From the NCBI GenBank assembly GCA_944326795.1, contig CALVFJ010000001.1, positions 16,795 through 80,794 of the forward strand: 64,000 nt of DNA. Reading direction: 5' to 3'. Source of the DNA: an uncultured Erysipelotrichaceae bacterium. Its GTDB lineage: Bacteria > Bacillota_I > Bacilli_A > Erysipelotrichales > Erysipelotrichaceae. The translations under genes were made by a program, and so were the position numbers. Below the pieces are notes generated by a model. It searched no databases. It was not told the origin of the DNA and was given only the letters and a program-made list of their open reading frames with translations. Shown here piece after piece: positions 23,078 through 39,374 of the stretch. How positions within the stretch are numbered: the first letter of the stretch is position 1; each line of letters begins with the position of its first letter.

Positions 23078-24817
23078 ATGTTACAAATCGTATGTACATT
23101 ATTATTATCTATGGTTATTATTATGCCGTTTGCCCTTTATATTTATAACATTACCACAAAGAAAAAGAGCTTTGTTGATCCGGTCATGGATAAAGTGGAT
23201 GATGGTATTTATCGCTTATTTAAAATTGATACCTCTGACATGGATTGGAAAAAATATGTTTGTACATTGCTTTTAGTAAATGCCTGCATGGTTTTGGTTG
23301 GCTATCTAATCCTTAGGGTGCAATCAATACTGTTTTTTAACCCAAATGGTATTGGAAACATGGACCAATCATTGTCCTTCAATACGATCATTTCGTTCAT
23401 GACCAATACGAACTTACAGCATTATTCCGGAGAATCTAGCTTATCATATCTGTCGCAGATGCTAGTGATCATCATGATGATGTTTACTTCTGCTGCTACT
23501 GGATATGCCGCATGTGCAGCCATGATAAGAGGATTTTTAGGAAAAAAGATGGGGAATTTTTATGTGGACTTTACCAGGATCATTACTAGATTTTTACTGC
23601 CTATGTCATTTATTGTTGGCTTGATCCTTGTATGGCAAGGGGTTCCTCAAACCTTGTATCCCAATTATACGGTATTTACTATTGAAGGAAAATTGCAAGA
23701 TATCGCAAGCGGTCCAATTGCTGCATTAGAATCTATAAAGCATTTAGGAACAAATGGTGGAGGTTTCTTAGGAGCTAATTCTTCGACCCCGCTTGAGAAT
23801 CCGACGATTATAACCAATATCTTGGAACTGTTTGCAATGATGATCTTACCAGCATCATGCGTATTTACTTTTGGACATATGGCTTATGATAAATACCATG
23901 AAAAGAAAATACAAGCAGGTAATGATCTTTCAACGATCAAAGATAACAAGCACGTATGGCTAGGATCAGAAGGCAGAAGCCTCTTTACAGCGATGGCTGT
24001 TTTATTTCTAATTGGTTTGATCCTATGCTTTTGGGCGGAGTCACAAGGGAATAGTGCTGTTGCCGCAAATGGAATCGTGCAAACATTAGGAAATATGGAA
24101 GGTAAAGAGGTTAGATTTGGTATAGCTCAATCTTCTTTGTTCACGACAGTAACAACTTCTTTTACGACTGGTACCGTAAATAATATGCATGATACCTTGA
24201 CACCTTTAGGCGGAATGGTTCCATTATTGCATATGATGTTAAATGTGGTCTTCGGTGGGGCAGGCGTTGGATTGATGAATATGTTGATCTATGCGATTAT
24301 CGCCGTATTTATTTGTGGATTGATGATTGGTAGAACACCAGAATATTTGAGCAAAAAAATTGAAGGAAAAGAAATGAAGCTTGCTGCTTTGTGCATCATC
24401 ATCCATCCATTGTTGATTTTAGGATTCAGCGCAATTAGCGTTATTGTTCCTGCAGGACTTGAGGGAATTACAAATCCGGGATTCCATGGGCTATCCCAGG
24501 TCTTATATGAATTTTCTTCATCTGCAGCTAATAATGGATCAGGGTTTGAAGGCTTAGCTGATAATACATTATTTTGGAACATTACGACAGGTATTGCTAT
24601 GTTCTTTGGACGTTATTTATCTATTGTGATCCAGCTGGCGATTGCTAACAGCTTAATGAAAAAGATCGATATTAATGAATCGGTTGGAACGCTAAAAACC
24701 AATACATGGACATTTGCAATTGTCTTGGTGTTTGTAGTTTATATTTTTGCTGCTTTGACTTTCTTGCCAGCATTGGCTTTAGGACCAATTGCCGAAGCAT
24801 TGACATTAGGAATATAA
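23078..24817 (+). CDS. kdpA: K+-transporting ATPase subunit A
   Basis: 579 aa, polytopic. The selectivity-filter-like blocks NTNLQHYSGES, GTNGGGF, TTGTVN and SAANNGSGF are characteristic of KdpA. Confidence 0.95.
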   Translation: MLQIVCTLLLSMVIIMPFALYIYNITTKKKSFVDPVMDKVDDGIYRLFKIDTSDMDWKKYVCTLLLVNACMVLVGYLILRVQSILFFNPNGIGNMDQSLSFNTIISFMTNTNLQHYSGESSLSYLSQMLVIIMMMFTSAATGYAACAAMIRGFLGKKMGNFYVDFTRIITRFLLPMSFIVGLILVWQGVPQTLYPNYTVFTIEGKLQDIASGPIAALESIKHLGTNGGGFLGANSSTPLENPTIITNILELFAMMILPASCVFTFGHMAYDKYHEKKIQAGNDLSTIKDNKHVWLGSEGRSLFTAMAVLFLIGLILCFWAESQGNSAVAANGIVQTLGNMEGKEVRFGIAQSSLFTTVTTSFTTGTVNNMHDTLTPLGGMVPLLHMMLNVVFGGAGVGLMNMLIYAIIAVFICGLMIGRTPEYLSKKIEGKEMKLAALCIIIHPLLILGFSAISVIVPAGLEGITNPGFHGLSQVLYEFSSSAANNGSGFEGLADNTLFWNITTGIAMFFGRYLSIVIQLAIANSLMKKIDINESVGTLKTNTWTFAIVLVFVVYIFAALTFLPALALGPIAEALTLGI

Positions 24818-24830
24818 AAGGTGATTTGAA

Positions 24831-26885
24831 ATGAGTAAGAAAAAAAAGAATAAGTTTATTACTAAAGATATTTTGTTATCAAGCATAAAGGAATCATTTG
24901 TTAAATTGAATCCTGTTTATATGATTAAAAATCCTGTAATGTTTGTTGTAGAAATTGGCTTTTTCATTAGTTTGGTCTTAGTTTTTTTTCCTCATCTATT
25001 TAATGATGAAGGAAATAATTTGAGTTTATATAATGCAATAGTGGCATTTGTGTTATTTTTTACCATTCTATTTGCAAACTTTGCTGAAGCTGTTGCAGAA
25101 GGTCGAGGCAAAGCCCAAGCTGAGACATTAAAGAAAACAAAAAAAGATACTCAAGCTCGCTTGATATTAGATGATGGAAGCGAAAAGATGATCTCAGCTT
25201 CCGAATTGAAAAAAGGAGATATCGTATTAATAAATGCAGGTGAGATTATTCCAAATGATGGCGAAATCATTGAGGGCATTGCCAGTATTGATGAATCCGC
25301 AATTACGGGTGAATCTGCTCCGGTATTAAAAGAAAGCGGGGGAGATTTTGCTTCAGTAACAGGAGGAACAACGGTTGTATCTGATTGGATCAAAGTTGAA
25401 ATTACTTCTGAGCCTGGAAATTCATTCTTGGATAAGATGATTGCTTTGGTTGAAGGTGCATCAAGGCAAAAGACCCCAAATGAAATTGCCTTGAACACAT
25501 TGTTGGTTTCATTAACTATCATCTTTTTGATCGTGATCGTTACATTATATCCATTTGCAATCTATTCAGGTGTTAAATTACAAATTTCAACTTTAGTAGC
25601 TTTGATGGTTTGCTTGATCCCTACGACGATCGGAGCACTGTTAAGCGCGATTGGTATAGCCGGTATGGATAGGGTTACAAGATTTAATGTCATTGCAATG
25701 AGCGGTAAAGCAGTTGAGGCTTGCGGTGATGTTGATACGATGATCCTAGACAAAACAGGTACCATTACTTTCGGAAATCGCTTGGCTAGTGACTTCATAG
25801 CTGTTGATGGCGTTGAAAAAGCAAAATTGATTGATAATGCATTTTTAGCTTCTTTTAAAGATGATACGCCAGAAGGAAAATCAACGGTTGATCTTGCACG
25901 GAAATTAGGCTGTAAAATAGATGCTGAACAATATCCGGACGTTGAATTTATTGAGTTTAGCGCTGCAACTAAGATGAGCGGCATTAATTATAATGGCCAT
26001 AAAATCAGAAAGGGAGCAGGTGATGCTATTGCTAAATATATCAAAGAACGGCAAGGAAAGATTCCTGCTGATCTAAGGGCTAAGGTTGATGAAATTTCAA
26101 AATTAGGAGGCACACCGCTAATTGTATGCTTAGATAATATGATCTTAGGTGTTATTTATTTAAAAGATACTGTAAAACCTGGATTGGTAGAAAGATTTGA
26201 AAGGTTAAGAGCTATTGGTATCAAAACAATCATGTGTACTGGTGATAATCCTTTAACTGCTGCAACGATTGCTGCGGAAGCTGGGGTTGACGGATATATT
26301 GCTGAATGTAAACCTGAAGATAAGATCAAGGCAATCAAAAAAGAACAATCAGAAGGTAAGATAGTTGCCATGACCGGCGATGGTACAAACGATGCTCCAG
26401 CTTTGGCGCAAGCTGATGTTGGTTTAGCGATGAATTCAGGAACATCTGCAGCCAAGGAAGCCGCTAATATGGTTGATTTAGATAGTGATCCAACAAAGAT
26501 TCTGGAAGTAGTAGAAATTGGTAAACAATTACTAATCACGCGTGGATCGTTAACAACATTTTCTATTGCAAATGATGTTGCAAAATATTTTGCAATCATT
26601 CCAGCCATGTTCACCGTGGCGATTCCACAGATCAAAGTATTAAATATCATGAATTTATCTACTCCTTCAAGCGCTATCTTATCCGCATTGATCTTTAACG
26701 CTCTTATCATTCCTTGCTTGATCCCTTTAGCAATGAGAGGCGTAAAATATAAACCTATGAGCGCAAGCAAGATGTTGGGAAGAAATATGCTGATTTATGG
26801 ATTAGGCGGTGTTATTTGTCCATTTATCGGAATTAAATTAATTGATCTGATCATTGCGCCAATCTTGATCATGTTAGGCATATAG
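24831..26885 (+). CDS. kdpB: K+-transporting P-type ATPase subunit B
   Basis: DKTGTIT phosphorylation site, [22 protein letters not shown]. The length and N-terminus are typical of KdpB. Confidence 0.95.
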
Positions 26886-26894
26886 GAGAAAATT

Positions 26895-27518
26895 ATGAAA
26901 GATTTTTTGAAAAGATTTAAAACGGCATTTATCTTTACCATAGGCATGTGTGTTATATGCGGCTTTGTATATCCAATGTTTTTAACTGCAACATCACAAA
27001 TTTTTTTCCATGATCAAGCTAATGGTAGCAAGATCGAAGTTAATGGAGAGGTTGTTGCTAGTGAATTCGTTGGTCAAGATTTTACTGATGAAAGATTATT
27101 CCATTGTCGACCTTCAGCATATAACTATAATACTTATACGTTAGAACAGCTTGAAAGTGGTGAATATGCAGGGTTAAGCAGTGGAAGCAATAACTATGCT
27201 CCAAGCAATCCTGCTTTAGAAAAAAGAATTTCTGATGAAGTAAAAACATTTATGGATGAAAATCCTACTGTTAAATTAGACGATATTCCAAGCGATATCG
27301 TTACGGCTTCGGGATCTGGCTTGGATCCACATATTTCTGTTGAAGCAGCCATGGTTCAGGTTGATCGCATCGTAGCTAATACTGATTTAACAAATGAAGA
27401 AGTTATTTCTTTGATTGAAAAAAATACCGAGCATAAAATATTAGGTATCTTTGGTGAGGATAAAGTGAATATTGTATTATTAAATTTAGATTTGGCAAAG
27501 GAAATTGGAATGATCTAA
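26895..27518 (+). CDS. kdpC: K+-transporting ATPase subunit C
   Basis: N-terminal TM helix, with ASGSGLDPHIS and LNLDL motifs typical of KdpC. Confidence 0.9.
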   Translation: MKDFLKRFKTAFIFTIGMCVICGFVYPMFLTATSQIFFHDQANGSKIEVNGEVVASEFVGQDFTDERLFHCRPSAYNYNTYTLEQLESGEYAGLSSGSNNYAPSNPALEKRISDEVKTFMDENPTVKLDDIPSDIVTASGSGLDPHISVEAAMVQVDRIVANTDLTNEEVISLIEKNTEHKILGIFGEDKVNIVLLNLDLAKEIGMI

Positions 27519-28300: not shown

Positions 28301-29353
28301 TTAAATTATTTGTTTGTTAGTATCGATGATCTCTTGATATTTAAATTTAGAAGGTAAGATATCAAAGAGAGTTTCCGTCAAGCGATAACAAAATGCAGGT
28401 GCTAAGATCAAGGTAATGCTAAGCATAGCAGCTGACAATAATCGATATGCACCATGGCGCTTATGACTGATGATAAATTCTACTCTTTTGATGATATTTG
28501 TTTTATTGTTATCAGAAAAAGAGATTAGATCGATGTCGGGAGCTTGTTGGATATTTTTTAAGCAATAGCGCATTAATTTGATAAGCGCTATTTTTTCAGC
28601 TTTGGACATCGTGGTGGTCATTCTTTCGTCGTTTGCAAGTTCACATGAAAATAATAAGGTATCAGCATATGTTTTGATAAAAGGGTTGTACCAAAAGATC
28701 AGCTTGTAGAAATTTGCAAGTTTGATGAAAAACAAATCGTGATATTTATAATGATATAATTCATGTTCGATCAAAAGTAACAATTGATCTTTGGTGTAAT
28801 CATGTTCAGGTATAAGGATTGTTGGATATTCTAATTGTACTAGACATGGTTTTTGGATATAGCTGTTGCGACAGATAGTGATGCGTGCTTGAATGTTTAG
28901 TTTTGTCTTAACTTTTTTTAACAAGTAAAATAATTCTTTGGGATAGCGGTTAGCTCTTTCGATCTTATTTAAAAGATCATTTGATTTATAGTAATGATAA
29001 AGCGTTAACAGCAAACATGAAAAGAATAAAACAAATAGCAAAGCATATACCGATAAACGCAAATATGGATCGCTTAGCTCCTGTAAGAAGTGATTGGTCA
29101 AACGAACATTATATTTAGCGTAGATTAGCTTATTTTTGAATAATTCACCATAGAGATAATCTTTTCCGATAAAAATGAGGATAAAAAATAAGGGAAAGGT
29201 AAAAAAGGTACCGATGAATTTTAAGATATTGCAATATGTGATTGCAGAAAAAGCAATAAGGTATCTTTGCAAGATCTTGATGCTAAGAAATAAAACGCTA
29301 ATGATTATATTTAAGATCAATAAAATGTAGATTGGTGCTAGATTATTCAGCAT
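28301..29353 (-). CDS. BlaR1/MecR1-type M56 membrane metalloprotease without an extracellular sensor domain
   Basis: Polytopic N-terminus. The HEXXH motif HELYH (28751-28765) sits in the IEHELYHYKYHD context typical of M56. The protein is only 350 aa and ends shortly after the last TM helix, so it has no PBP/beta-lactam sensor domain. Confidence 0.8.
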   Translation of the reverse strand: MLNNLAPIYILLILNIIISVLFLSIKILQRYLIAFSAITYCNILKFIGTFFTFPLFFILIFIGKDYLYGELFKNKLIYAKYNVRLTNHFLQELSDPYLRLSVYALLFVLFFSCLLLTLYHYYKSNDLLNKIERANRYPKELFYLLKKVKTKLNIQARITICRNSYIQKPCLVQLEYPTILIPEHDYTKDQLLLLIEHELYHYKYHDLFFIKLANFYKLIFWYNPFIKTYADTLLFSCELANDERMTTTMSKAEKIALIKLMRYCLKNIQQAPDIDLISFSDNNKTNIIKRVEFIISHKRHGAYRLLSAAMLSITLILAPAFCYRLTETLFDILPSKFKYQEIIDTNKQII

Positions 29354-29720
29354 CTTCGTATTTTTTAATCAAGGCATCGATCTCATCAGCAGCTTCATTT
29401 CGGGTTTTTTCATCATCGATAAATCCCAAAAGGATATCGGTATAGGTCTTGTTTTCATGCTTTAAAAGGATATTGTTTAAATATTGTTTCAAGTATTCGC
29501 TTTTGCTTATAGATAACCAATACATCGTGCCGTCGATATTTTGCTTGGATATCAAACCTTTTGCTTCTAAACGCATTAGAAAAACGGAGATCGAACTATT
29601 TTTCCATTGATTTGGGTATGCATCTTGAATAGTAGTGAAGATGGCTTTTTTATTGATCTTATTATGATGCTTCCAAAATAGTTGTAATATCATTGATTCT
29701 GAATGGGAAACGCTTTTCAT
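29343..29720 (-). CDS. BlaI/MecI/CopY-family transcriptional repressor
   Basis: 125 aa. The winged-helix N-terminus SESMILQLFW...NSSISVFLMRLEAKGLI matches the family. It overlaps the downstream M56 gene by 11 nt. Confidence 0.85.
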   Translation of the reverse strand: MKSVSHSESMILQLFWKHHNKINKKAIFTTIQDAYPNQWKNSSISVFLMRLEAKGLISKQNIDGTMYWLSISKSEYLKQYLNNILLKHENKTYTDILLGFIDDEKTRNEAADEIDALIKKYEDAE

Positions 29721-29840: not shown

Positions 29841-31667
29841 ATGCGAAAGATCAGAAAATTAGTATTATTGCTGATGGTGGTATTGATGATGACATGCGTG
29901 ATTAATGCTGAAGATAATCAAGAAAATGATGTAAGAACAGGAAGCATTACATTATATAAATTAGTATCTAAGGATGGAGCATTTAAAGATGGCAATGGAT
30001 ATGAACAAGATATAAGCGATGTTGGAAATGAACCATTAGCAGGTGTAACTTTTAAATACCTAAAAGTAGGTGAAATGAAACAAGTGGATAATGATGATCG
30101 TGATATTAGTGGGCTATATTATCTTTTAAATGCGGATTTTAAAGCTTGGCTATCTCAGCACAACATAACGACTGAGTATACGACGATCGATAAGGTTGAT
30201 TATGTTAGCGCTGAAGCAGCTAATAAGATCATGAAAGATCTAAATACGTTAACGGTTGCATATGGGCAAGATGATGGAAGTCAAAGCGGAAATGAATTGT
30301 TAAAAGCCTATGTTGATGCCAAAGGAACAGCGATGCCTGTGACTGATGATCAAGGCAAAACACAAGTAGATAACTTAGAAGTTGGTTTATATCTAATTGT
30401 CGAGATGGATATTCCTGCAAAGGTTAGTGATGGAATTGGCGCTAATGTTGCTAAGGAAAGCCGACCTTTTTTTATTAGCTTACCAATGACCAATCTGACG
30501 ATGATCGATGGACATCCTGCTGGATCGATGTGGCAGTATGATGTTATTGCTTATCCCAAAAATGAAATGATCACGATCCGTAAGGATATCATTGCTAACG
30601 GTAATGATGTTTTAGATGGGGCAGATGCCAACGGATTGGTGCAAAAAACTGATAAGAATGTAGGAGATAATATTTCATTCTTGCTTAGTATAGATGTACC
30701 GATGTTGCAGCCGATGGCCGATGGTGTTCCTAATACTAATCGAAAATTTATTGTTAAGGATAATTTGAGTGATGGATTAATAATTGATGATCATAGCGCT
30801 AATAATTTTGAAGTTTCATTAGGAACGGATAATTACAATGGAGATGGGAATACAATGCTGGAATATGGCACTCATTATGTAATAGAAGGTAAGGATACTA
30901 GTTTCGTATTGACCCTGACCGAAGTTGGATTGGATAAATTGAATCAGATCAGTGCGGATTCAAAGTTATATGTAAGATATCAAGCAAGATTAACTAAAGA
31001 TGCTGTTAAAGATAATGGTGCTATTAAAGAAGAAAGCAATGCTTTTACCTTGACTTATGGGACCAGTGTTTCAGCGGATAAGGAATTTGCTTCTAACCAA
31101 GATATCAGGGTTTATACCTATGAGATCGATATCAAAAAGAGCTTTAGTCATGAAGTAGATGATATCAGTCAGGTTAGCTTTAAAGTAGCATATCAACAAA
31201 ATGATGGAATTTATCAACCATTGCGTTTTGTCAAAGAAACAGCAGGTATCTATCATCTACAAGACAAGGCTGAAACAGGTGTTGATACGATCAATCCTGA
31301 TGCTCAAGGCAATCTTATCATCAAAGGTTTGGATGATGGCACATATGAATTTAAAGAAGCATCGACTATTCCTGGTTTTAATCTATTGCGTGACCCTATC
31401 TATGTAACACTGAAAAAAGCTTATCCTGAAGACGGTACCTTGCAGCAAGCATCAGTGCAAAGCAAAAATAGCGAAAAGATGATGCTTGAGGAAGGATTAG
31501 CACAGGGGATAGCCAGATTTGAAATTCGTAATAATGAAACGATTGCCATCTTGCATACAGGCGGCGATGGAAGGGATATCTTTGCAGCAATATTAGGGGT
31601 AATGATGATCTTTGGTGGGACGGTGATCATCTTGAATAAGAAAACTTATGAAAAAAAGAAGGATTAA
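29841..31667 (+). CDS. Major pilin (backbone) subunit with YPKN pilin motif, E-box and C-terminal sorting signal
   Basis: Signal peptide. WQYDVIAYPKN pilin motif (YPKN at 30552-30563). E-box-like YEFKEASTIPGF. The C-terminus is ILHTGG (31548-31565) followed by a hydrophobic helix and a KK-rich tail. Confidence 0.8.
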   Translation: MRKIRKLVLLLMVVLMMTCVINAEDNQENDVRTGSITLYKLVSKDGAFKDGNGYEQDISDVGNEPLAGVTFKYLKVGEMKQVDNDDRDISGLYYLLNADFKAWLSQHNITTEYTTIDKVDYVSAEAANKIMKDLNTLTVAYGQDDGSQSGNELLKAYVDAKGTAMPVTDDQGKTQVDNLEVGLYLIVEMDIPAKVSDGIGANVAKESRPFFISLPMTNLTMIDGHPAGSMWQYDVIAYPKNEMITIRKDIIANGNDVLDGADANGLVQKTDKNVGDNISFLLSIDVPMLQPMADGVPNTNRKFIVKDNLSDGLIIDDHSANNFEVSLGTDNYNGDGNTMLEYGTHYVIEGKDTSFVLTLTEVGLDKLNQISADSKLYVRYQARLTKDAVKDNGAIKEESNAFTLTYGTSVSADKEFASNQDIRVYTYEIDIKKSFSHEVDDISQVSFKVAYQQNDGIYQPLRFVKETAGIYHLQDKAETGVDTINPDAQGNLIIKGLDDGTYEFKEASTIPGFNLLRDPIYVTLKKAYPEDGTLQQASVQSKNSEKMMLEEGLAQGIARFEIRNNETIAILHTGGDGRDIFAAILGVMMIFGGTVIILNKKTYEKKKD

Positions 31668-32496
31668 GAAAAAAGTGTGGCTGATCATAGGTTCGTTAGG
31701 GATATATCTAGGATACCTATTGCTGGTATGGCCTTATATCTGTGATCAATATGCTCGGATCTTTCAAACTTCTTGGCTTGCTGCATATGATGAACATTTA
31801 AATATTGTCGATAACGCTGAGCTAAATGAAATTAAGGAACGTTGTCAAAAATATAATGAAAAGATCTATCTTCAGCAGCAAGATAATCAATATCGTTATA
31901 GTTCTGCCTTAGGCTATGATCAAGAATATCTATCATTGCCTTGGAACGGTGAAAAGGTTTTAGCTGCAATCATCATTCCTAAGATCAATGTTAATTTGCC
32001 GATAGGACATGGAACAGCGGATGATACGCTACAAGTTATGGCTGGACATTTATATGGCACCTCATTGCCAAGCGGTGGCAAAGACACACATGCCGTAGTT
32101 GCTGCACATTCTGGACTGCGTAGCAGTGAACTTTTTTCGCGCTTGGATGAACTTACCATCGGCGATGAAATTCAGATCAAGATATTTGATGAGCTTCATT
32201 TTTATAAAGTTGAACAGATAAAAGTGGTGTTGCCAGATGAGTGCGATCAATATCTGCAGATCATCCCTCATGAAGATCTTATAACTTTATATACCTGTAC
32301 CCCATATGGAATCAATAGTCATCGCTTATTGATAAGAGCAAAACGAAGCTTTGGGAATGATAAGGAACTAGTAAACAACATCACGCTAGCAAATGACAAA
32401 TGGAAACATTTGTTGATCATTGGAGCAATCGTTTCGCTTCCGCTAGGCGGTATGTTAGTTTTTGTTATGAGGAAAAGGAGGATGGGTGATGCTTAA
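31648..32496 (+). CDS. srtC: Class C (pilin-polymerising) sortase
   Basis: VVAAHSG catalytic His block and TLYTCTPYGINSHRLLIRAKR (TLxTC...R), plus N- and C-terminal TM helices. It overlaps the pilin stop by 20 nt. Confidence 0.9.
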   Translation: MKKRRIKKKVWLIIGSLGIYLGYLLLVWPYICDQYARIFQTSWLAAYDEHLNIVDNAELNEIKERCQKYNEKIYLQQQDNQYRYSSALGYDQEYLSLPWNGEKVLAAIIIPKINVNLPIGHGTADDTLQVMAGHLYGTSLPSGGKDTHAVVAAHSGLRSSELFSRLDELTIGDEIQIKIFDELHFYKVEQIKVVLPDECDQYLQIIPHEDLITLYTCTPYGINSHRLLIRAKRSFGNDKELVNNITLANDKWKHLLIIGAIVSLPLGGMLVFVMRKRRMGDA

Positions 32497-33457
32497 GCTA
32501 CTATTGGTTTGTTTTTGGCTATTAAGGCCGATGGTATCTGAAACATTAGCCATAAATGATGAAAAAGCCCAGATCGTCATTAATTATTTTGATGATAATG
32601 CGCAAAAGGTTCCAGTTAGTGGTTCAAGCTGGATCTTGGTTAAAGTAGCGCGGATCGTTACTGAAGCGGATGATAAGATCGATGGTTTGAAGATCATTTC
32701 ATTGGTTGATGGCTTAAAGATCGATAAAAATAGTGAGATTGAGGAAATTTTACAACATCTTGAACTTACCAAGCAGGATGAATCTCATCAAAAAGTGATG
32801 AATATCAAGGGCCTTGAAGTGTATGAAAAGATAACAAATGACCAAGGTCAGATCATTTTTGATGATCTAGAACCAGGCGTATATCTGGGGCTTGAGCAAA
32901 GCGCAGCAGCTTATCATTTATGTGCTGAACCATTTTTGCTCAGTGTGCCAGCAACCAAAGATGGCGTAGAAAGTGATATGGATCAAACGGTAGAACCTAA
33001 AGCTGTTTTGGGTGGTAATTTGCGTATCAGCAAAAAAGCTAGCGGTAATGCAGTTGATCGTCAAGAAAGATTTGCCATGATGATCGAGATCCCATCAGGG
33101 ACATATCGTTATCGCTTTGCTGATGGTCAAACAGGATATATCAGCGCTCATCAGCAATTATTAGTAAATGTTGATAATGATGTCATCATTTATGATGTCT
33201 TAGCTAACCAAGAATACAAGGTTTATGAAGTAAAGGCAAATCAAGATGGTTATAAGACCATCTATCAGCAAAATGAAGGAATGATCATGGCGAAGCAGGA
33301 GGTATCAGCAACGATCATCAATGAGCGCAGTTACCACGATGAGGTAGATACCAAGGTAGCAAGCATGATCGATCTTGCTTTGGGTTTGTGGGTGTTATCG
33401 ATCATAGTTATCTTAGGCTTGGGTTTTTTGGATAAAAGCAAGGAGCATAAACGATGA
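32489..33457 (+). CDS. Small pilin-like subunit (candidate minor/basal pilin) with a C-terminal TM anchor
   Basis: Signal peptide. E-box-like LEPGVYLGLEQSAAAYHL, an Ig-like repeat character, and a C-terminal hydrophobic helix with a KSKEHKR tail. I see no LPXTG-like motif. ATG at 32489 lies 7 nt after AAAAGGAGG. Confidence 0.55.
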   Translation: MLKLLLVCFWLLRPMVSETLAINDEKAQIVINYFDDNAQKVPVSGSSWILVKVARIVTEADDKIDGLKIISLVDGLKIDKNSEIEEILQHLELTKQDESHQKVMNIKGLEVYEKITNDQGQIIFDDLEPGVYLGLEQSAAAYHLCAEPFLLSVPATKDGVESDMDQTVEPKAVLGGNLRISKKASGNAVDRQERFAMMIEIPSGTYRYRFADGQTGYISAHQQLLVNVDNDVIIYDVLANQEYKVYEVKANQDGYKTIYQQNEGMIMAKQEVSATIINERSYHDEVDTKVASMIDLALGLWVLSIIVILGLGFLDKSKEHKR

Positions 33458-36400
33458 AAAAATGGATTATCTTTATATTAACGCTGATATTGGGGCTTAG
33501 CTTAGATATCATGAAGCCATGGGCACAAATTAGCGAAGAATCCTTTGCGCCTGCCGTTGCGACAGTGGAAACGCAAGATATATTGGCAAGAATTGCTTGT
33601 AATGAAAATATGATGATCTTGATCGGAAATGAACAGGATCAAGATTTTCAGCAATTGTTAGATGCATTTACTGATGTGTTAGCGCAAAGTGATCAAAACG
33701 TTGCATCACATATTGTAAAGATAACTAAGATAGATGATGAAGCATTGATCAAAAAATTTATTGATCATGCATATGATGAAAATGATAAGCAGTTGATCAT
33801 GGAAGCTTTTGCTGATATTTTACAAGGATCTACCGGAAACTTTGCTATTGTTGATGTATTTAATGCCACGATAACAAAAGTTACGTCATATAGCTTAAAA
33901 TTAGCTGATGGATTGACGATAGCGGATGTTGCTAGCATAGAGCTAGGGCTGATGTATCATAAACTGATAAATCAGCTACGACCTGAAATTTCTTTGATGG
34001 CGGTTAATGGTGCCAACGAAGGGGATCAGTGGAATTTTAATGCCAAAGCGCGTATCCAGGAATTTACCGCCCCTGTTAATGGCAATTATTTGGTCAAGCT
34101 TTGGGGTGCCGATGGTGATTCGGATATGGGATCTAAAACATATGGAGTCAATGAGCAAAGTGTTCCGCATACTACAGGAATCGGTGGCGGTGGGGGATAT
34201 ACCCAAGGGATCATCCATTTAGAACAAGGACAAACCATCTATCTAGCTTTAGGTTTCCGTAATGATATGTCAGGCAAAAGATCATATAATGGCGGTGGCA
34301 AAGGCTTAGGTGCCAGTTATGGTTATCGTTCAGGCGGTGGCGGAGCTGCATCTGCTTATTTGAGCGAACAAGGCAATGGCGAAATAAATGCTTATCAAAA
34401 TGCTCAAGATCAGATCATCATGATCGCAGGTGGTGGAGGCGGAGCTGAAGATTTCTTCGCGCCTTCTTGGCAAAATTATTATTGTAATTTTAATGTGTGT
34501 ATCACATCGATCGGTGGAAGCGGTGGAAGTAATCCTACCAGTGGAACAAGCAGTGGTGGTATAGGAAGTGGAGGAAACTATCAGTTTGGAATTGGTGAAG
34601 ATTATGCTTCTTATGAGAATTCGTCATCAGGTGGTGGCGGCGGTGGTCTATATGGTGGTCGTTCAGCAAATAATACAAGTTTAGTATTACGTGGCGGAAC
34701 AGGTGGCGGTGGTTTAAGCTATATTAATGAAGCTATCGTTAAAGATGGACATATGACAAACGGCGAATCGGTTAATTATCAATGGGTAGGTGATGCCTAC
34801 GGCTTTGATGATGGCGAAAATGCCAAGGCTAGCATTGAATTGATCTCAATTGATAAATATCAGCTTACCATCAATTATTTAGATAAATATACCGATCAAG
34901 CTATTCATGAAACATACCAAGAAATGATAACTTTGGGTAGTGATTATCAAGTACCTTCACCAGATATTGATGGTTATGGCGTCAGTGATGAAGATCAAAT
35001 AATAATTGAGGGAGTCATGCCAGATCATGATGTAGTAATTGATGTTTATTATGATTATGCAACTTTAAAGATATATTACCTAGATCATGAAACGCATGAA
35101 GATCTTGCAGAACCATATATCGTGCATCTTAAAAGTGGTACAGAGTATGAAAAGCAATCACCAGATATTGATGGCTATGTAAGATTTGATGGTGATCATG
35201 ATGTCATCAAAGGCATAAAAAATTTAAAAGAGGAAATTTATCATGTTTACTATGTTCCATCATTTGAACCTATTAAAGATATCATCATGGTCAATGATGA
35301 AGTTATTGATAAAGAAACAAGTGATCATGGTGTACAATTAAAAGCTGGTGATATCGTAACCTATCAAATCTCATATGAAAATAAACGAGGCGTTGAGGTC
35401 AAGGAAACGATCGAGGATGAATTAAGCGATAGTTTGGAATATATGGAATACATCAAAGATCATGAGCCAATAATTACTGATAAGAAACTTACTTGGAATT
35501 TAGAGATTGCCCCTCAAAGTAGTGGCAGCGTAAGCTTTAAAGCTAAGGTCAAAGATACGGATGAAAAGACGATCGATAACTGGTCAAGAAAAGATCCTTA
35601 TATCAGCTATTCGATAGTAAAGGATAGTGATCCCCGACCTGGTGAGCAAGTAGGCTATGATCAAGAAGTAACGTATTATTTAAAAGTAAAAAATAATGGT
35701 TCAAATACCGTTAATAATTTATTAGTAGTGGATAAGATACCGGAAAATACTGCGTTTAGCTGGGTCGATCATGATTACCATGGACAGTATATAGCTGATG
35801 CTAATTATGTACGTTTTGTCATAGATGAATTATTACCTGATCAAACTGCGCTTTTATCCTTTAAAGTAAAAGTAACAGCTAAGATCATGGACGATAGTTT
35901 TTTGCTCATAGAAAATAAGGCTCATTATGATAATTTTGCAGGCAAAATTGATGATCTAACAAAAGATGAACAAGTTATGCAAAATAACAATATTACCAAT
36001 ACCATTAAACATGAGGTAGTTGGTGTTAAGATCGATGCCTTAAAGACCAGCGATCCAATTGATGGTATGATGGTTAATGCCGGGCAGATCATTACTTACA
36101 ATGTAAGCTTGATAAATAATGGAACCGTAAAATCCAATTATTTAAGGGTTCAAGATGAAATTCCTGCTGGTACTAGTTTTGTTGATGGCAGTTTAAATTT
36201 AATAACGGATAATCCTGCATCAGATCAAAAATATGCTTTTTCACATGGCGAATCATTTGATATTCATTATGATCTAAATAATAAGCAATATTATTTATCG
36301 AATATTGGAGAAATTAAAACGACTAGTGGTAACGCAGCACAAGCATTTCAAATTTCATGGAAGGGTGATATTTCATTAGTCGCTGAAGAAGTTCCAAGTG

Positions 36401-38688
36401 GCTGGAACAAATTTAATGTTAATGGTAATGTGCGATATTTTAATGTTTCAAAAAATAATACCCAAGAAGCAATCAAAGAATATTTAAGTTCATTACGTTT
36501 TAGCGGTGAATATGGAACGGTTGGCGAAATAGTGCTAAATGTATTTGATACTTCTTCAATGATAGGACGTTTTGATGATGAAGGCGTCATTCATTTTTAT
36601 CAATATGTCAGCGGAGCATATAATTGGAATAGTGCTAATAGTAAAGCAAGTTCTTCGTGGTTTGCTGGGTTGCAAGGTTATCTAGCGACCATTACTTCTG
36701 CTGATGAAATGAATTTTTTGCAAACTTCGGTTGCGACGAAAGAAGGATGGATCGGCTCAAGATATACTGGCGGATATTGGAAATGGGTCACTGGTCCGGA
36801 AAAGGGAGAAGCTTGGTGGAAAGGAACCAATCGAGGCTCAGCAATAGGAAAATATTCTCACTGGAATAGTGGCGAGCCAAATAATTCTGGCGGCAATGAA
36901 GATTGTGTCGTGGCTTATTATTCCACGCAGGCATGGTGGAATGACTGGGCTGCTTCACAGACGACCGGCTATTATGTCGAGTATTCTGATGGTTATAATG
37001 GGTACTATATGCCAAAATCTAAATACGCTACTGAACTTCCTACGCCTAGCAATTCTGGAGGTTGTAAATATATTGCAGCTAATGACAAGTATTTTGTCGA
37101 ATGTGTTACATCGGATATTGAACCGGATAAAAAGGTCACAATGACATTTAAGGTCAAAGTGAATGATCCTTTAAGCACTGGCATAAATGAAATCGTAAAT
37201 ACGGCATATTTTGAAAATAGTTTTGAAGATCTAGGATATGCAGGCACTAAAGATGAAGCACCTGATAAACCATCTAATACGACCATTCATCCGTTGGAAG
37301 GAAAACAGCCGATCATTACGGCTGTTAAAGATTCTGATCCCAAAAGCGGCAGCGTCGTTGATATCTTAGACACGATCATCTATAAGATACATGTAGAAAA
37401 TAAAGGCAATAGTCAAGCTAAATATATATTGGTTCGTGAATACTTGCCAGAACATACAGCATATATACCACAAAGTATTTCTCATGATGGCACATATCAG
37501 CTAAATGCGGATAGACCATATGTTCAATGGCTGATTCAGGATCTTCCGTCAAAAGGCGATGTTGATCTATATTATGGGGTTCAAGTTAATAAAGATGCCC
37601 CATATGATGCTAAAATCGAAAGAGCTGCACTTTATGAAGCCTTTACTCTAGAACCAGACGAAGCAATACTGGCTAAAGATCCAATAGAACAAACCAACAA
37701 GACCGTTCATTATCTTCATGAAGTAGATCAAGAAGATGAGAAAATGGTTGTTTTAAACAAGCAAGCTGAGCCCCAAAACGATAGCTATGTCCATCGTGAA
37801 GAAACGATACGCTATGATCTGCAAGTCAAAAATACTGCAAAGACGACCGTAAGATATATCATCGTTCATGATAAGATCCCTGCTTCAACTTCACTGGTTG
37901 AAATTGCACAGATCGAAAAGGCCACCAGTAAACAAATAGGCGATGATATTTATTGGGAGATAACAGATTTGCCGCCAGATACGGCATTAACATTATCTTT
38001 TGTGGTCAAAGTGGATAAAGAAAGCTTAAGTTCTCAGATCATCAATTATGCTTCATATGGCACATCGACTCGTAAAGATCTTTCAGATGAAGAAAAACAA
38101 GATTTGTTGACCAATAAAAGCAATTTGGTCATCCATAATATCTATGAAGCACAAGTTGAAGTAGTAAAAAATGCCGATATCGAAGCAGGTAGCCTTGTTG
38201 GGCGAGGACGCAAGATCACCTATACTTTAGCGATAACCAATTCTTCGCAAACAACAGCTAACTATGTGGCATTAGCTGATGCGATACCTCAAGGAACGAT
38301 GCTTGATGCTCATAGCATAAGATATGATGACAAAAATGATTTGTGCCAGCTTGATAGCACTAAGAATCATCTATATTTTGTATTGCATGATCTAAAACCA
38401 AAGGAAACCAGAAGCGTCAGCTTTAGCGTGATCGTCAGTGATGAATGTCGCGATGGTCAAATTATCGAAAATCAAGCTTTTTATGAGTTGTCAAATGTAA
38501 GACCTGCAGCTATCGATAGCGAAGATTTCCATCATCCGCAGCAGCCGACCAATAAGATCATTCATTATGTAGCAATCGGTACCGATGTTTTACCGACTGG
38601 TGGTAAAGGCTTTAGCAGATCATATTATGGTGTAGTTATTTTGTTGATATGGGTTGGTGCATGGATAATAAACAAAAAAAGTCGTTGA
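33454..38688 (+). CDS. Giant cell-surface adhesin (candidate pilus tip). Order: signal, N-domain, glycine-rich (ALK-GRD-like) domain, 2x MucBP, ~6 DUF11/CARDB-like repeats with a nested C-type lectin domain, LPTGG sorting signal
   Basis: 1,744 aa. Gly-rich blocks GGGGGYTQG, GGGGAASAY and GGGGGGLYGG at 34030-34850. MucBP-like repeats (YQLTINYLDKY..., LKIYYLDHE...) at 34855-35250. Repeats of the form DSDP..G..V....I.Y.I.V.N.G...A....V.D.IP. The C-terminus is VLPTGG (38587-38604) followed by a hydrophobic helix and KKSR. Confidence 0.85.
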   Translation: MKKWIIFILTLILGLSLDIMKPWAQISEESFAPAVATVETQDILARIACNENMMILIGNEQDQDFQQLLDAFTDVLAQSDQNVASHIVKITKIDDEALIKKFIDHAYDENDKQLIMEAFADILQGSTGNFAIVDVFNATITKVTSYSLKLADGLTIADVASIELGLMYHKLINQLRPEISLMAVNGANEGDQWNFNAKARIQEFTAPVNGNYLVKLWGADGDSDMGSKTYGVNEQSVPHTTGIGGGGGYTQGIIHLEQGQTIYLALGFRNDMSGKRSYNGGGKGLGASYGYRSGGGGAASAYLSEQGNGEINAYQNAQDQIIMIAGGGGGAEDFFAPSWQNYYCNFNVCITSIGGSGGSNPTSGTSSGGIGSGGNYQFGIGEDYASYENSSSGGGGGGLYGGRSANNTSLVLRGGTGGGGLSYINEAIVKDGHMTNGESVNYQWVGDAYGFDDGENAKASIELISIDKYQLTINYLDKYTDQAIHETYQEMITLGSDYQVPSPDIDGYGVSDEDQIIIEGVMPDHDVVIDVYYDYATLKIYYLDHETHEDLAEPYIVHLKSGTEYEKQSPDIDGYVRFDGDHDVIKGIKNLKEEIYHVYYVPSFEPIKDIIMVNDEVIDKETSDHGVQLKAGDIVTYQISYENKRGVEVKETIEDELSDSLEYMEYIKDHEPIITDKKLTWNLEIAPQSSGSVSFKAKVKDTDEKTIDNWSRKDPYISYSIVKDSDPRPGEQVGYDQEVTYYLKVKNNGSNTVNNLLVVDKIPENTAFSWVDHDYHGQYIADANYVRFVIDELLPDQTALLSFKVKVTAKIMDDSFLLIENKAHYDNFAGKIDDLTKDEQVMQNNNITNTIKHEVVGVKIDALKTSDPIDGMMVNAGQIITYNVSLINNGTVKSNYLRVQDEIPAGTSFVDGSLNLITDNPASDQKYAFSHGESFDIHYDLNNKQYYLSNIGEIKTTSGNAAQAFQISWKGDISLVAEEVPSGWNKFNVNGNVRYFNVSKNNTQEAIKEYLSSLRFSGEYGTVGEIVLNVFDTSSMIGRFDDEGVIHFYQYVSGAYNWNSANSKASSSWFAGLQGYLATITSADEMNFLQTSVATKEGWIGSRYTGGYWKWVTGPEKGEAWWKGTNRGSAIGKYSHWNSGEPNNSGGNEDCVVAYYSTQAWWNDWAASQTTGYYVEYSDGYNGYYMPKSKYATELPTPSNSGGCKYIAANDKYFVECVTSDIEPDKKVTMTFKVKVNDPLSTGINEIVNTAYFENSFEDLGYAGTKDEAPDKPSNTTIHPLEGKQPIITAVKDSDPKSGSVVDILDTIIYKIHVENKGNSQAKYILVREYLPEHTAYIPQSISHDGTYQLNADRPYVQWLIQDLPSKGDVDLYYGVQVNKDAPYDAKIERAALYEAFTLEPDEAILAKDPIEQTNKTVHYLHEVDQEDEKMVVLNKQAEPQNDSYVHREETIRYDLQVKNTAKTTVRYIIVHDKIPASTSLVEIAQIEKATSKQIGDDIYWEITDLPPDTALTLSFVVKVDKESLSSQIINYASYGTSTRKDLSDEEKQDLLTNKSNLVIHNIYEAQVEVVKNADIEAGSLVGRGRKITYTLAITNSSQTTANYVALADAIPQGTMLDAHSIRYDDKNDLCQLDSTKNHLYFVLHDLKPKETRSVSFSVIVSDECRDGQIIENQAFYELSNVRPAAIDSEDFHHPQQPTNKIIHYVAIGTDVLPTGGKGFSRSYYGVVILLIWVGAWIINKKSR

Positions 38689-39374
38689 TAAAACTAATGA
38701 TGATCATGGCTTGGATGCTTCTGATATCAACTTCCACATATCTCATCAATGAACAAAAACGGATATATCAAGAAAAAAATAAGGAACAAAGCATCAAAAA
38801 AATGATCGATGAAAATGAACATGCTTTTGATATGTTGGCGAAGATCAATCCTGACCTACTTGCTATTCTAAATTTTGATGATGCTTTTATCTCTTTACCA
38901 ATCGTTAAAGGAACAGATAATGCATATTATCTTCAGCACGCTTTTGATGGTAGCTATAGTTCACAAGGCACGGCTTTTGTTGATGTTAGGTATCAAAATA
39001 CTGATCAGATCATGTTTATATATGGGCATAATGTTTATTATGATCCAAACGCAATGTTTTCGCCATTGGCATCGTTGTTAGATCAAGATGAATTTGAACG
39101 TCATGATAAATTTGAACTGATCTATCAAGATCATAAAGAAAGCTATGGTATCTGCATGAGCTTGCTGGTAGATGTTGAAGATCAACAGGTCATGCAGACC
39201 CAATTTGCATCGTTAATAGCTTGGCAAACATGGTATGAGCGATTGAAAAGTTATGCAATGCTTGAATCGTCATATCATGTGCCAAGCTTTGCAGATAAAA
39301 TGGTCATCTTGCAGACTTGTTATGAGCGCGACGTGAATAAACGCATTTGGATTGTTGCAAAAAAGATTTCCTGA
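38661..39374 (+). CDS. srtB: Class B sortase
   Basis: INPDLLAILNF...LPIVKGTDNAYYL, IYGHNVYYDPNAMF and MVILQTCYERDVNKRIWIVAKKI parallel S. aureus SrtB blocks (INKDIVGWI, LYGHHV..NTMF, MTLSTC...KRIVVVAKII). The start is uncertain (38649, 38661 or 38697) and overlaps the end of the adhesin gene. Confidence 0.8.
   Translation: MDNKQKKSLIKLMMIMAWMLLISTSTYLINEQKRIYQEKNKEQSIKKMIDENEHAFDMLAKINPDLLAILNFDDAFISLPIVKGTDNAYYLQHAFDGSYSSQGTAFVDVRYQNTDQIMFIYGHNVYYDPNAMFSPLASLLDQDEFERHDKFELIYQDHKESYGICMSLLVDVEDQQVMQTQFASLIAWQTWYERLKSYAMLESSYHVPSFADKMVILQTCYERDVNKRIWIVAKKIS

Follow-up and report, generated by a model that had tools for sequence, protein, structure and literature searches.

Can a surface protein of a Gram-positive pilus bind sugars through the Ca2+ site known from animal C-type lectins? 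The question is raised by a stretch of DNA of 64,000 nucleotides from an uncultured Erysipelotrichaceae bacterium (contig CALVFJ010000001.1, positions 16,795 to 80,794; hereafter the window), which encodes a 1,744-residue adhesin within a pilus operon. An earlier note, made by reading the sequence, had proposed that this adhesin contains a C-type lectin domain with the EPN and WND motifs of sugar-binding animal lectins. Ca2+-dependent C-type lectins are treated as animal proteins by textbooks and most reviews. Here we confirm that residues 1045–1180 of the adhesin are a true C-type lectin-like domain (Lectin_C/CTLD). From its sequence and relatives, we consider it probable that this head of the Lectin_C clade, a swappable allele on the pilus-operon adhesin of an uncultured Erysipelotrichaceae-like Firmicute, binds glycans of the mannose, N-acetylglucosamine (GlcNAc) or fucose type in a Ca2+-dependent manner.

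The adhesin contains a C-type lectin-like domain

Window positions 36595–36987 on the forward strand translate exactly to the peptide that the earlier note had quoted. A search with the Pfam hidden Markov model (HMM) for Lectin_C (PF00059) gave significant matches above the gathering score of 22.6 bits, both with the whole protein (31.7 bits, E 2.7e-7) and with the excised region (34.8 bits, E 2.9e-8). No other Pfam family was found over this stretch even at E≤10, and NCBIfam holds no model for the segment. In phmmer searches of the PDB sequences, 127 animal C-type lectin chains were matched at E≤1, led by codakine (the best match, 2e-7, 34 bits), CD23, mannose-binding protein C and DC-SIGNR. 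With a profile built from the microbial relatives described below, matches to single carbohydrate-recognition domains of animals reached 1e-14 to 1e-20.

The fold is in agreement with these matches. An AlphaFold2 model of the lectin, built from 41 sequences, was obtained with a mean predicted local distance difference test score (pLDDT) of 91.8 and a predicted template modelling score of 0.88, and it contains two helices, β strands 1–5 and a long loop region, all in canonical order. Comparison of the model with the PDB by Foldseek returned 352 matches at E≤0.001. The top 50 are all animal carbohydrate-recognition domains, with CD23, CEL-I, MGL and CL-K1 in the lead, and the top matches have a probability of 1.0 and target-normalised template modelling scores of 0.61–0.77, with 21–26% identity for the best animal structures. 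As proposed, the domain has a single Cys (C1151), which lies unpaired at the β3 (C2) position, and the canonical disulfides (α1–β5, and β3 to the loop after β4) are absent. This pair of conserved disulfides is what marks out animal CTLDs; the Pfam family is not defined by it.

The principal Ca2+ site is retained and the auxiliary site is altered

The residues that bear on Ca2+ and sugar binding were located as follows.

36760-36771, forward strand: R1103 to G1106, the positions of the auxiliary Ca2+ site-1 Asp and Glu, lost (family alignment)
36874-36882, forward strand: EPN triplet, E1141-N1143 (translation and alignment)
36874-36906, forward strand: E1141-P-N1143-N1144 ... E1149-D1150-C1151, principal-ligand residues and then the lone Cys (alignment)
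36937-36945, forward strand: WND motif, W1162-N1163-D1164, on strand β4 (alignment, and model with the strand at model residues 124-128)

All five principal-site ligands (E1141, N1143, E1149, N1163 and D1164) are present in canonical spacing, and in the phmmer alignments they fall on those of mannose-binding protein C, CD23 and DC-SIGNR. In the case of mannose-binding protein C, 'GEPNNSGGNEDCVV...WND' of the adhesin was aligned on 'GEPNNVGSGENCVV...WND', so that the two sequences are in register at the Glu and Asn of EPN, at the Glu 8 residues further on from the EPN Glu, and at the Asn and Asp of WND. This alignment to the principal site bears out the order and spacing of EPN and WND that had been read from the sequence. 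The string 'EPNNVGSGENC' of mannose-binding protein C aligns with adhesin E1141–C1151 residue for residue, and 'EPNNSGGNEDC' of codakine is identical to the adhesin string letter for letter. The model places EPN in the long loop, E1149 just before β3 and WND on β4, with pLDDT values of 92–94 at these positions and of 93–94 over E1141–C1151.

At the auxiliary Ca2+ site, R1103 and G1106 replace Asp and Glu in the loop that follows the WIG motif, while N1144 and D1150, adjacent to EPN and to E1149, are retained. An ortholog with 65% identity to the adhesin (P0013) likewise has R and G at the Asp and Glu positions. Human CD23 and the selectins also lack the auxiliary site, which is not obligatory.

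The domain belongs to a large microbial Lectin_C clade

The earlier note had held that bacterial proteins with a CTLD fold lack the Ca2+/sugar site. This view has to be abandoned. When 1.84 billion cluster representatives were searched exhaustively with HMMER, 5,724 microbial Lectin_C representatives were recovered at E≤1e-3 and 1,728 at E≤1e-10. Among 282 sampled non-orthologous domains, EPN is found in 62%, QPD in 13% and WND in 66%. The same domains contain no Cys at all in 61% of cases and the β3–loop disulfide pair in 12%; a lone β3 Cys, as in the adhesin, occurs once. Column conservation in 290 domains is complete for P1142 and W1162 (100% each) and high for D1164 (96%) and E1149 (79%), followed by E1141 (72%, with Q in 21%), N1143 (70%, with D in 16%) and the Asn of WND (N in 70%). 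The auxiliary-site columns carry Asp in 88% and Glu in 74%.

The adhesin lectin is a member of a large, known, annotated and mostly Cys-free microbial clade, members of which NCBI names "lectin-like protein". Its single-domain microbial relatives score 100–110 bits at 40–52% identity, compared with 34 bits for the best animal structure, and the motifs HFY..V at the start, GYLATITS, W.W.TGPE and GY.VEY at the end run through the clade. No PDB chain scores like a clade member: the best single-domain chain, CD23, reaches 77 bits as against 100–166 for clade members. Taxonomic breadth was judged from protein names. The top hits that are named or whose architecture was checked are nearly all bacterial surface proteins, together with one archaeon, a Nitrosopumilus, and two protists, Diplonema papillatum and Apiculatamorpha, and an Acidimicrobiales protein with a prepilin leader is included. 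Partner domains are of bacterial kinds, namely PEP-CTERM, RTX repeats, TIG, MBG_2, Laminin_G_3, Flg_new (Listeria–Bacteroides repeats) and GLUG, and sortase-type signals occur in only 4 of the top 150 representatives.

Many clade members are giant proteins with 2–27 domain copies. A Diplonema papillatum protein of 6,674 residues has 27 matched Lectin_C stretches, an Apiculatamorpha protein has eight and an archaeal Nitrosopumilus protein seven (this set, outside the window, has the protein ids P0021, P0011 and P0019/P0280). The first domain copy of P0011 has Cys in helix α1 and strand β5. Our literature searches turned up no experiments on a canonical C-type lectin of bacteria. CDD has a subgroup of bacterial CTLDs, CLECT_VCBS, described as functionally uncharacterised. 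A paper that uses the term 'bacterial C-type lectins' refers to unrelated Ca2+ lectins of the BclA/LecB type from Burkholderia.

Is the domain nevertheless a recent arrival from an animal host or prey, or a product of convergence on the animal motif set, as the earlier note had suggested? We regard either as very unlikely. Convergence is excluded because the match is one of homology, significant at the level of both HMM and fold. In favour of animal acquisition are the 11 residues EPNNSGGNEDC shared with the bivalve lectin codakine and a GC content at third codon positions (GC3) of 0.36 in the lectin segment versus 0.28 in the whole gene. On the other hand, the string 'EPNNSGGNED' is found also in PEP-CTERM bacterial proteins, and the GC3 shift amounts to about two standard errors, with the adjoining pedestal (module X, described below) deviating in the opposite direction (0.16). 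The closest relatives are microbial, at 100–110 bits versus 34 for codakine and at 40–52% identity versus 21–26% for the best animal structures, and the adhesin lectin shares with them the motifs HFY..V, GYLATITS and GY.VEY and the Cys-free habit, which makes a recent animal-to-bacterium transfer unlikely. Recent horizontal transfer as judged from composition was also rejected: the differences in GC3 are slight, and neighbouring segments deviate in opposite directions. The best-known bacterial CTLD folds are those of intimin/invasin and of the variable proteins of diversity-generating retroelements (DGRs), which would imply a CTLD devoid of the Ca2+ site; that the adhesin lectin is of this kind is hardly credible, given that Lectin_C is the sole Pfam match and, as regards DGRs, that variation within the protein is lowest in the lectin. 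The candidate DGR target was rejected, as no template repeat was found in the 64-kb window with the insert DNA as query (blastn, word size 7), where the longest chance match was 33 bp.

As an observation on composition, GC3 changes sharply from module X (0.16) to the adjoining lectin (0.36; 36214–36993), the whole gene being at 0.28; statistically the shifts are marginal, yet consistent with a mosaic history.

The lectin is nested in a split CLIPPER domain

The adhesin consists of a leader, a variable N-terminal region, a glycine-rich domain, a MucBP domain, a CLIPPER stalk that holds a pedestal and the lectin, and a sorting signal. The N-terminal leader is hydrophobic. The remaining segments are listed here.

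33454-38688, forward strand: adhesin, 1,744 residues (open reading frame list and translation)
34078-34737, forward strand: ALK/LTK-type glycine-rich domain, residues 209-428 (Pfam PF12810, 62.3 bits, cut-off 24.5)
34864-35052, forward strand: MucBP domain, residues 471-533 (Pfam PF06458, 26.9 bits, cut-off 23)
35590-35967, forward strand: intact CLIPPER/DUF11 repeat, residues 713-838 (Pfam, TIGR01451 and own-repeat HMM)
36031-36213, forward strand: N-terminal half of the split CLIPPER/DUF11 domain, residues 860-920 (own-repeat HMM)
36214-36585, forward strand: module X, the pedestal, residues 921-1044 (precedes the variable head)
36586-36993, forward strand: C-type lectin-like domain, residues 1045-1180 (Pfam, PDB phmmer, model and Foldseek)
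36994-37077, forward strand: return linker ending 'LPTPSNSGG', residues 1181-1208 (conserved linker motif)
37078-37221, forward strand: C-terminal half of the split CLIPPER/DUF11 domain, residues 1209-1256 (own-repeat HMM)
37303-38523, forward strand: three intact CLIPPER/DUF11 repeats, residues 1284-1405, 1430-1546 and 1564-1690 (Pfam, TIGR01451 and own-repeat HMM)
38587-38604, forward strand: V-L-P-T-G-G sorting motif, with a hydrophobic stretch and a tail of basic residues after it (sequence)

CLIPPER is the new name of DUF11, a CnaA-like, isopeptide-bonded stalk domain of fibrillar adhesins for which the residue triad has been defined (PMC12617251). An HMM built from the four intact CLIPPER repeats of the adhesin itself matched residues 860–920 over model positions 5–65 (E 2.3e-12) and residues 1209–1256 over model positions 68–114 (E 1.4e-6). 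These two consecutive partial matches indicate a third CLIPPER domain that is split by an insertion of 288 residues. The split follows the fourth strand, and the insertion comprises module X, the lectin and the short return linker. In the alignment, K864 and D901 in the N-terminal half and N1249 in the C-terminal half occupy the positions of the isopeptide Lys, the catalytic acid and the isopeptide Asn, respectively.

A second AlphaFold2 model, covering residues 860–1290, has an overall pLDDT of 68.9, with 84–95 over the lectin. For its alignment the CLIPPER repeats were dropped, since MAFFT had placed them, whole or halved, on the lectin columns. High confidence in this model is confined to the lectin, so the case for nesting is made by the HMM matches. 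Module X, of about 125 residues, has no Pfam match and was modelled as β strands with one helix (pLDDT about 70–88). A module of about 100 residues also stands ahead of the lectin in 99 of 268 microbial domain instances (for example, P0010 residues 60–172). The idea that module X is this upstream module of other bacteria was rejected: an HMM of that module does not match the adhesin (best score −3.1 bits), and a search with module X by itself finds only orthologs.

Two further features of the adhesin were recorded. A second MucBP-like repeat was read by eye downstream of the MucBP domain. The ALK/LTK-type domain is another animal-named domain in this adhesin family, and a second copy of it is present as the nested head in P0286, P0287 and P0294.

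The lectin site is occupied by different heads in homologous adhesins

Approximately 30 cluster representatives of homologous adhesins were collected, of 1,750–2,330 residues, with the glycine-rich domain, CLIPPER repeats and sortase signal in common. We examined 23 of them, the window protein included, and delimited the insert by the anchors D.IP.GT.[FY]V..S upstream and C.[YF]...EC downstream. In 22 of the 23, an insert of 265–688 residues is located at the same site, and both the return-linker motif and the C.[YF]...EC anchor are conserved across the family. Of the 22 proteins with a delimited insert, 12, the window protein among them, have module X at this site, as a single or a double copy. 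The heads are of the following kinds; seven further inserts lay outside the Pfam scan.

Lectin_C, five proteins: the window protein, its ortholog P0013, P0283, P0285 (a cluster of 240 sequences) and P0291 (with QPN and two pedestals)
ALK_LTK_GRD, six proteins: P0286 (92 bits), P0287 and P0294 by Pfam (32-92 bits); P0289, P0290 and P0293 by phmmer
F5/8-type-C-like (discoidin-like), below the Pfam cut-off: P0292, P0301 and P0310 (three of the eight inserts scanned)
No Pfam match: P0284 and P0298 (among the scanned inserts)

The four CTLD heads of related adhesins all have WND, with EPN in three and QPN in one. P0283 is a mosaic allele. Its N-terminus differs from that of the window protein and is longer; over residues 209–1040 the two match at 100% identity, which then falls to 58% in the lectin and to 37–57% downstream. 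The drop in identity at the boundary between pedestal and lectin indicates a recombination junction at this point. The lectin of P0283 has EPN and WND and in addition keeps the auxiliary Asp and Glu. As judged from these alignments, the lectin site is a swappable head position in the adhesin family.

The lectin is the most constrained segment of the adhesin

The lectin is under strong purifying selection and is the most constrained segment of the adhesin. Its identity to the 65%-identical ortholog is 90%, compared with 42–82% for other segments, and the ratio of nonsynonymous to synonymous substitution rates (dN/dS) is about 0.026 (dN 0.050) as against 0.07–0.28 elsewhere, with synonymous sites near saturation. 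Across seven within-species variants, 3.7% of positions vary in the lectin and 4.0% in module X, versus 10.5% in the C-terminal part, 18.8% in residues 713–920 and 20.8% in the N-terminal 712 residues. The metal and sugar ligands are invariant in the seven variants and in the 65%-identical ortholog. Residues 1–712 (33454–35589) are the most polymorphic part of the protein within the species, and pedestal and lectin the least.

The adhesin is encoded in a pilus operon

The adhesin gene is the fourth of five overlapping genes, of which the other four are as follows.

29841-31667, forward strand: major pilin of the SpaH/EbpB family, 608 residues (NCBIfam NF033902, 141.9 bits, cut-off 95; Pfam GramPos_pilinD1, GramPos_pilinBB and SpaA), with its YPKN pilin motif at 30552-30563 (motif scan)
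31648-32496, forward strand: class C pilus-polymerising sortase with a TLYTC catalytic motif (NCBIfam NF033745, 211.8 bits, cut-off 160; motif)
32486-33457, forward strand: small pilin-like protein, 323 residues (Pfam DUF7601 and SpaA)
38649-39374, forward strand: second sortase, class-B-like (Pfam Sortase, 28.1 bits, cut-off 26.6; TIGR03064, 106.9 bits, cut-off 153.75)

The class C sortase gene overlaps both of its neighbours. The second sortase gene overlaps the 3' end of the adhesin gene by 40 nt, and its product is termed only class-B-like, as its NCBIfam class B score of 106.9 falls short of the 153.75 cut-off. The 323-residue protein is probably a minor or basal pilin. With a sorting signal, a major pilin carrying YPKN and a class C sortase all in place, the view of a sortase-signal protein in a pilus operon is well founded. 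The description as a tip lectin in the earlier note is imprecise. The adhesin is probably the pilus tip subunit, because it is the largest subunit and has no pilin motif; the lectin, at residues 1045–1180 of 1,744, is internal to it, nested together with the pedestal in a loop of the third CLIPPER domain of the stalk.

The adhesin sorting signal reads V-L-P-T-G-G-KGFSRSYYGVVILLIWVGAWIINKKSR, a variant form; among adhesin homologs we observed VLPTGG, VIQTGG, VIETGG, IILTGG and LQTGG. The major pilin has I-L-H-T-G-G (approximately 31530–31560), also non-classic, and the small pilin-like protein has no recognisable motif ahead of its hydrophobic tail.

The pilus cassette is conserved at two of the loci compared (L001 and L005). 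At L005, the locus of the distant homolog P0285, four genes of the cassette, including the small pilin-like gene, are found in the same order in a different neighbourhood, and no sortase gene follows the adhesin. At a further locus (L002), a 230-residue open reading frame takes the post-adhesin position and has no recorded Pfam hit. A metagenome contig of 105 kb encodes a protein identical to the adhesin (P0161), flanked by the same genes as in the window, and downstream synteny is kept around the 65%-identical ortholog, which is from an Erysipelotrichaceae metagenome-assembled genome. In a single-protein scan of species-representative genomes, close relatives of the adhesin were found in only two, an 'uncultured Firmicutes bacterium' (99%) and an Erysipelotrichaceae metagenome-assembled genome (79%).

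Directly upstream of the operon and divergent from it is a BlaR1/BlaI-like pair, a Peptidase_M56 sensor and a Penicillinase_R repressor (28301–29720, reverse strand), which could regulate the operon. The kdpABC potassium-transport genes (23078–27518), which are ordinary, lie upstream of the pilus locus.

Discussion

How might such a head work? In the mechanism that we propose, the two CLIPPER halves would refold into one β-sandwich and would probably be stapled by an isopeptide bond between K864 and N1249, with D901 as the catalyst, and the lectin would project sideways from this covalently closed scaffold on the stalk. One Ca2+ ion would be held by E1141, N1143, E1149, N1163 and D1164, and the ion and the same side chains would ligate two adjacent equatorial hydroxyls of a sugar. 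By the rule derived from animal domains, the EPN signature predicts a sugar of the mannose, GlcNAc, fucose or glucose type. W1161, W1165 and the W1121–W1122 pair may add stacking surfaces. The ligands would most likely be mucin or epithelial glycans, or mannose- or fucose-rich polysaccharides of yeasts or bacteria, and replacement of the head by recombination would vary binding specificity across the adhesin family. The MucBP domain hints at host mucin glycans, and its presence in the same protein, together with the pilus operon, fits a mucosal habitat and mucosal adhesins.

A number of points weigh against this interpretation, or against parts of it. Support for the Ca2+ site from the model consists in the predicted topological placement of the ligands. 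Many animal CTLDs with intact folds bind proteins and not sugars. With two of the four auxiliary ligands lost and the disulfides absent, loop stability and Ca2+ affinity could differ from those of animal domains, and we found no solved structure or binding study of a microbial clade member among the PDB sequences or in the searchable literature. The packing of the CLIPPER halves and the isopeptide bond are predictions from sequence, and the halves have pLDDT values of 50–68 in the second model. The adhesin sorting motif is not the classic LPXTG, and gene order is the one line of evidence for the tip position. The source contigs are metagenomic and carry no host label.

Two other functions were weighed against Ca2+-dependent binding of host or microbial glycans. 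It is possible that the lectin serves mainly in cohesion between bacteria or with the matrix through microbial exopolysaccharide, rather than in attachment to a host, an option that we consider unlikely and that differs from the favoured one in the source of the ligand only, and not in mechanism. Many relatives of the lectin are small PEP-CTERM proteins, whose sorting signal has been linked in the literature to exopolysaccharide production, and a bacterial protein with a C-type lectin domain is reported to be extremely highly transcribed in a methanotroph biofilm (PMC8788690); MucBP and the pilus operon, by contrast, are typical of mucosal adhesins. The other option departs further from the favoured one, since the CTLD would bind a non-carbohydrate ligand, such as a host protein, a pilin or a mineral surface, or act independently of Ca2+, with EPN and WND kept for loop stability or by ancestry. 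CTLD folds are versatile, and the top structural match, CD23, binds IgE as well as sugars; the loss of the auxiliary site and the occurrence among the alternative heads of a glycine-rich domain with no known lectin activity point the same way. Nevertheless, the five principal ligands are intact, in exact spacing and invariant in variants and orthologs, WND is found in all four related CTLD heads and EPN or QPN in three and one of them, and the EPN/QPD dichotomy of the clade is typical of switching in sugar specificity. We therefore judge a non-carbohydrate or Ca2+-independent role to be rather improbable, and prefer Ca2+-dependent glycan binding.

Comparison with known systems helps to define what is unusual in this lectin. 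With animal C-type carbohydrate-recognition domains (mannose-binding proteins A and C, DC-SIGN and DC-SIGNR, CD23, CEL-I and codakine) it has in common the Pfam family, the double-loop α/β fold, the WIG and W.W core motifs and the five principal ligands in identical spacing; it differs from them in having no disulfides, in the loss of the auxiliary Ca2+ site, in being encoded by a Gram-positive bacterium and in its nesting inside another domain. It resembles the microbial clade in its sequence motifs; the clade is mostly Cys-free and has EPN and WND in about two thirds of its members. Most of those members, however, belong to Gram-negative, cyanobacterial and planctomycete proteins, often as tandem copies, whereas the adhesin lectin is a single copy nested in CLIPPER and lacks the usual auxiliary Asp and Glu.

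Sortase-assembled pilus adhesins are exemplified by SpaC, RrgA and Cpa, and the tip adhesins described so far have heads of the von Willebrand factor A (vWFA), thioester or collagen-binding kind, placed at the N-terminus or close to it. The adhesin shares with Gram-positive pilus and fibrillar adhesins an operon with a YPKN pilin and a class C sortase, the build of a large terminal adhesin with a sorting signal, and a CLIPPER stalk, but its C-type lectin is carried on a loop inside one of the stalk domains, and homologs have other heads. Intimin/invasin, DGR variable proteins (Mtd and TvpA) and the FGE-type proteins have the fold of the CTLD superfamily but are not known to possess the long-loop Ca2+/sugar site or to be matched by PF00059. 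In contrast, the adhesin lectin matches PF00059 alone, and no DGR template repeat is present in the window.

That a bacterium has a C-type lectin domain is not new; the context and the architecture are. Few clade members have sortase-type anchoring, and to this are added the nesting in CLIPPER, the loss of the auxiliary site and a family in which heads are swapped. A more far-reaching version of our proposal, which we put forward tentatively and hold to be less than likely, is that the stapled CLIPPER loop and module X are a dedicated display socket that takes alternative heads by recombination, be they C-type lectin, ALK/LTK-type glycine-rich, discoidin-like or of unknown kind, and that its C-type head is a working Ca2+-dependent lectin for host or fungal glycans with mannose, fucose or GlcNAc, using the chemistry of DC-SIGN and mannose-binding lectin; it would be the first functional one to be shown on a Gram-positive pilus.

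The microbial Lectin_C clade is large, annotated by pipelines and biochemically unexplored, and this locus is a good entry point to it, with a single-copy, strongly constrained domain and intact principal-site motifs. Natural allelic heads are at hand for comparison, including the 58%-identical lectin with its auxiliary site intact and the glycine-rich and discoidin-like heads on a scaffold that is otherwise the same. The pilus setting points to a role in attachment, to glycans of either host or microbes. If such binding is borne out, domain swapping at a nested site would be documented as a route of adhesin diversification, and commensal Firmicutes and the innate receptors of their hosts would share homologous chemistry on the same glycans.

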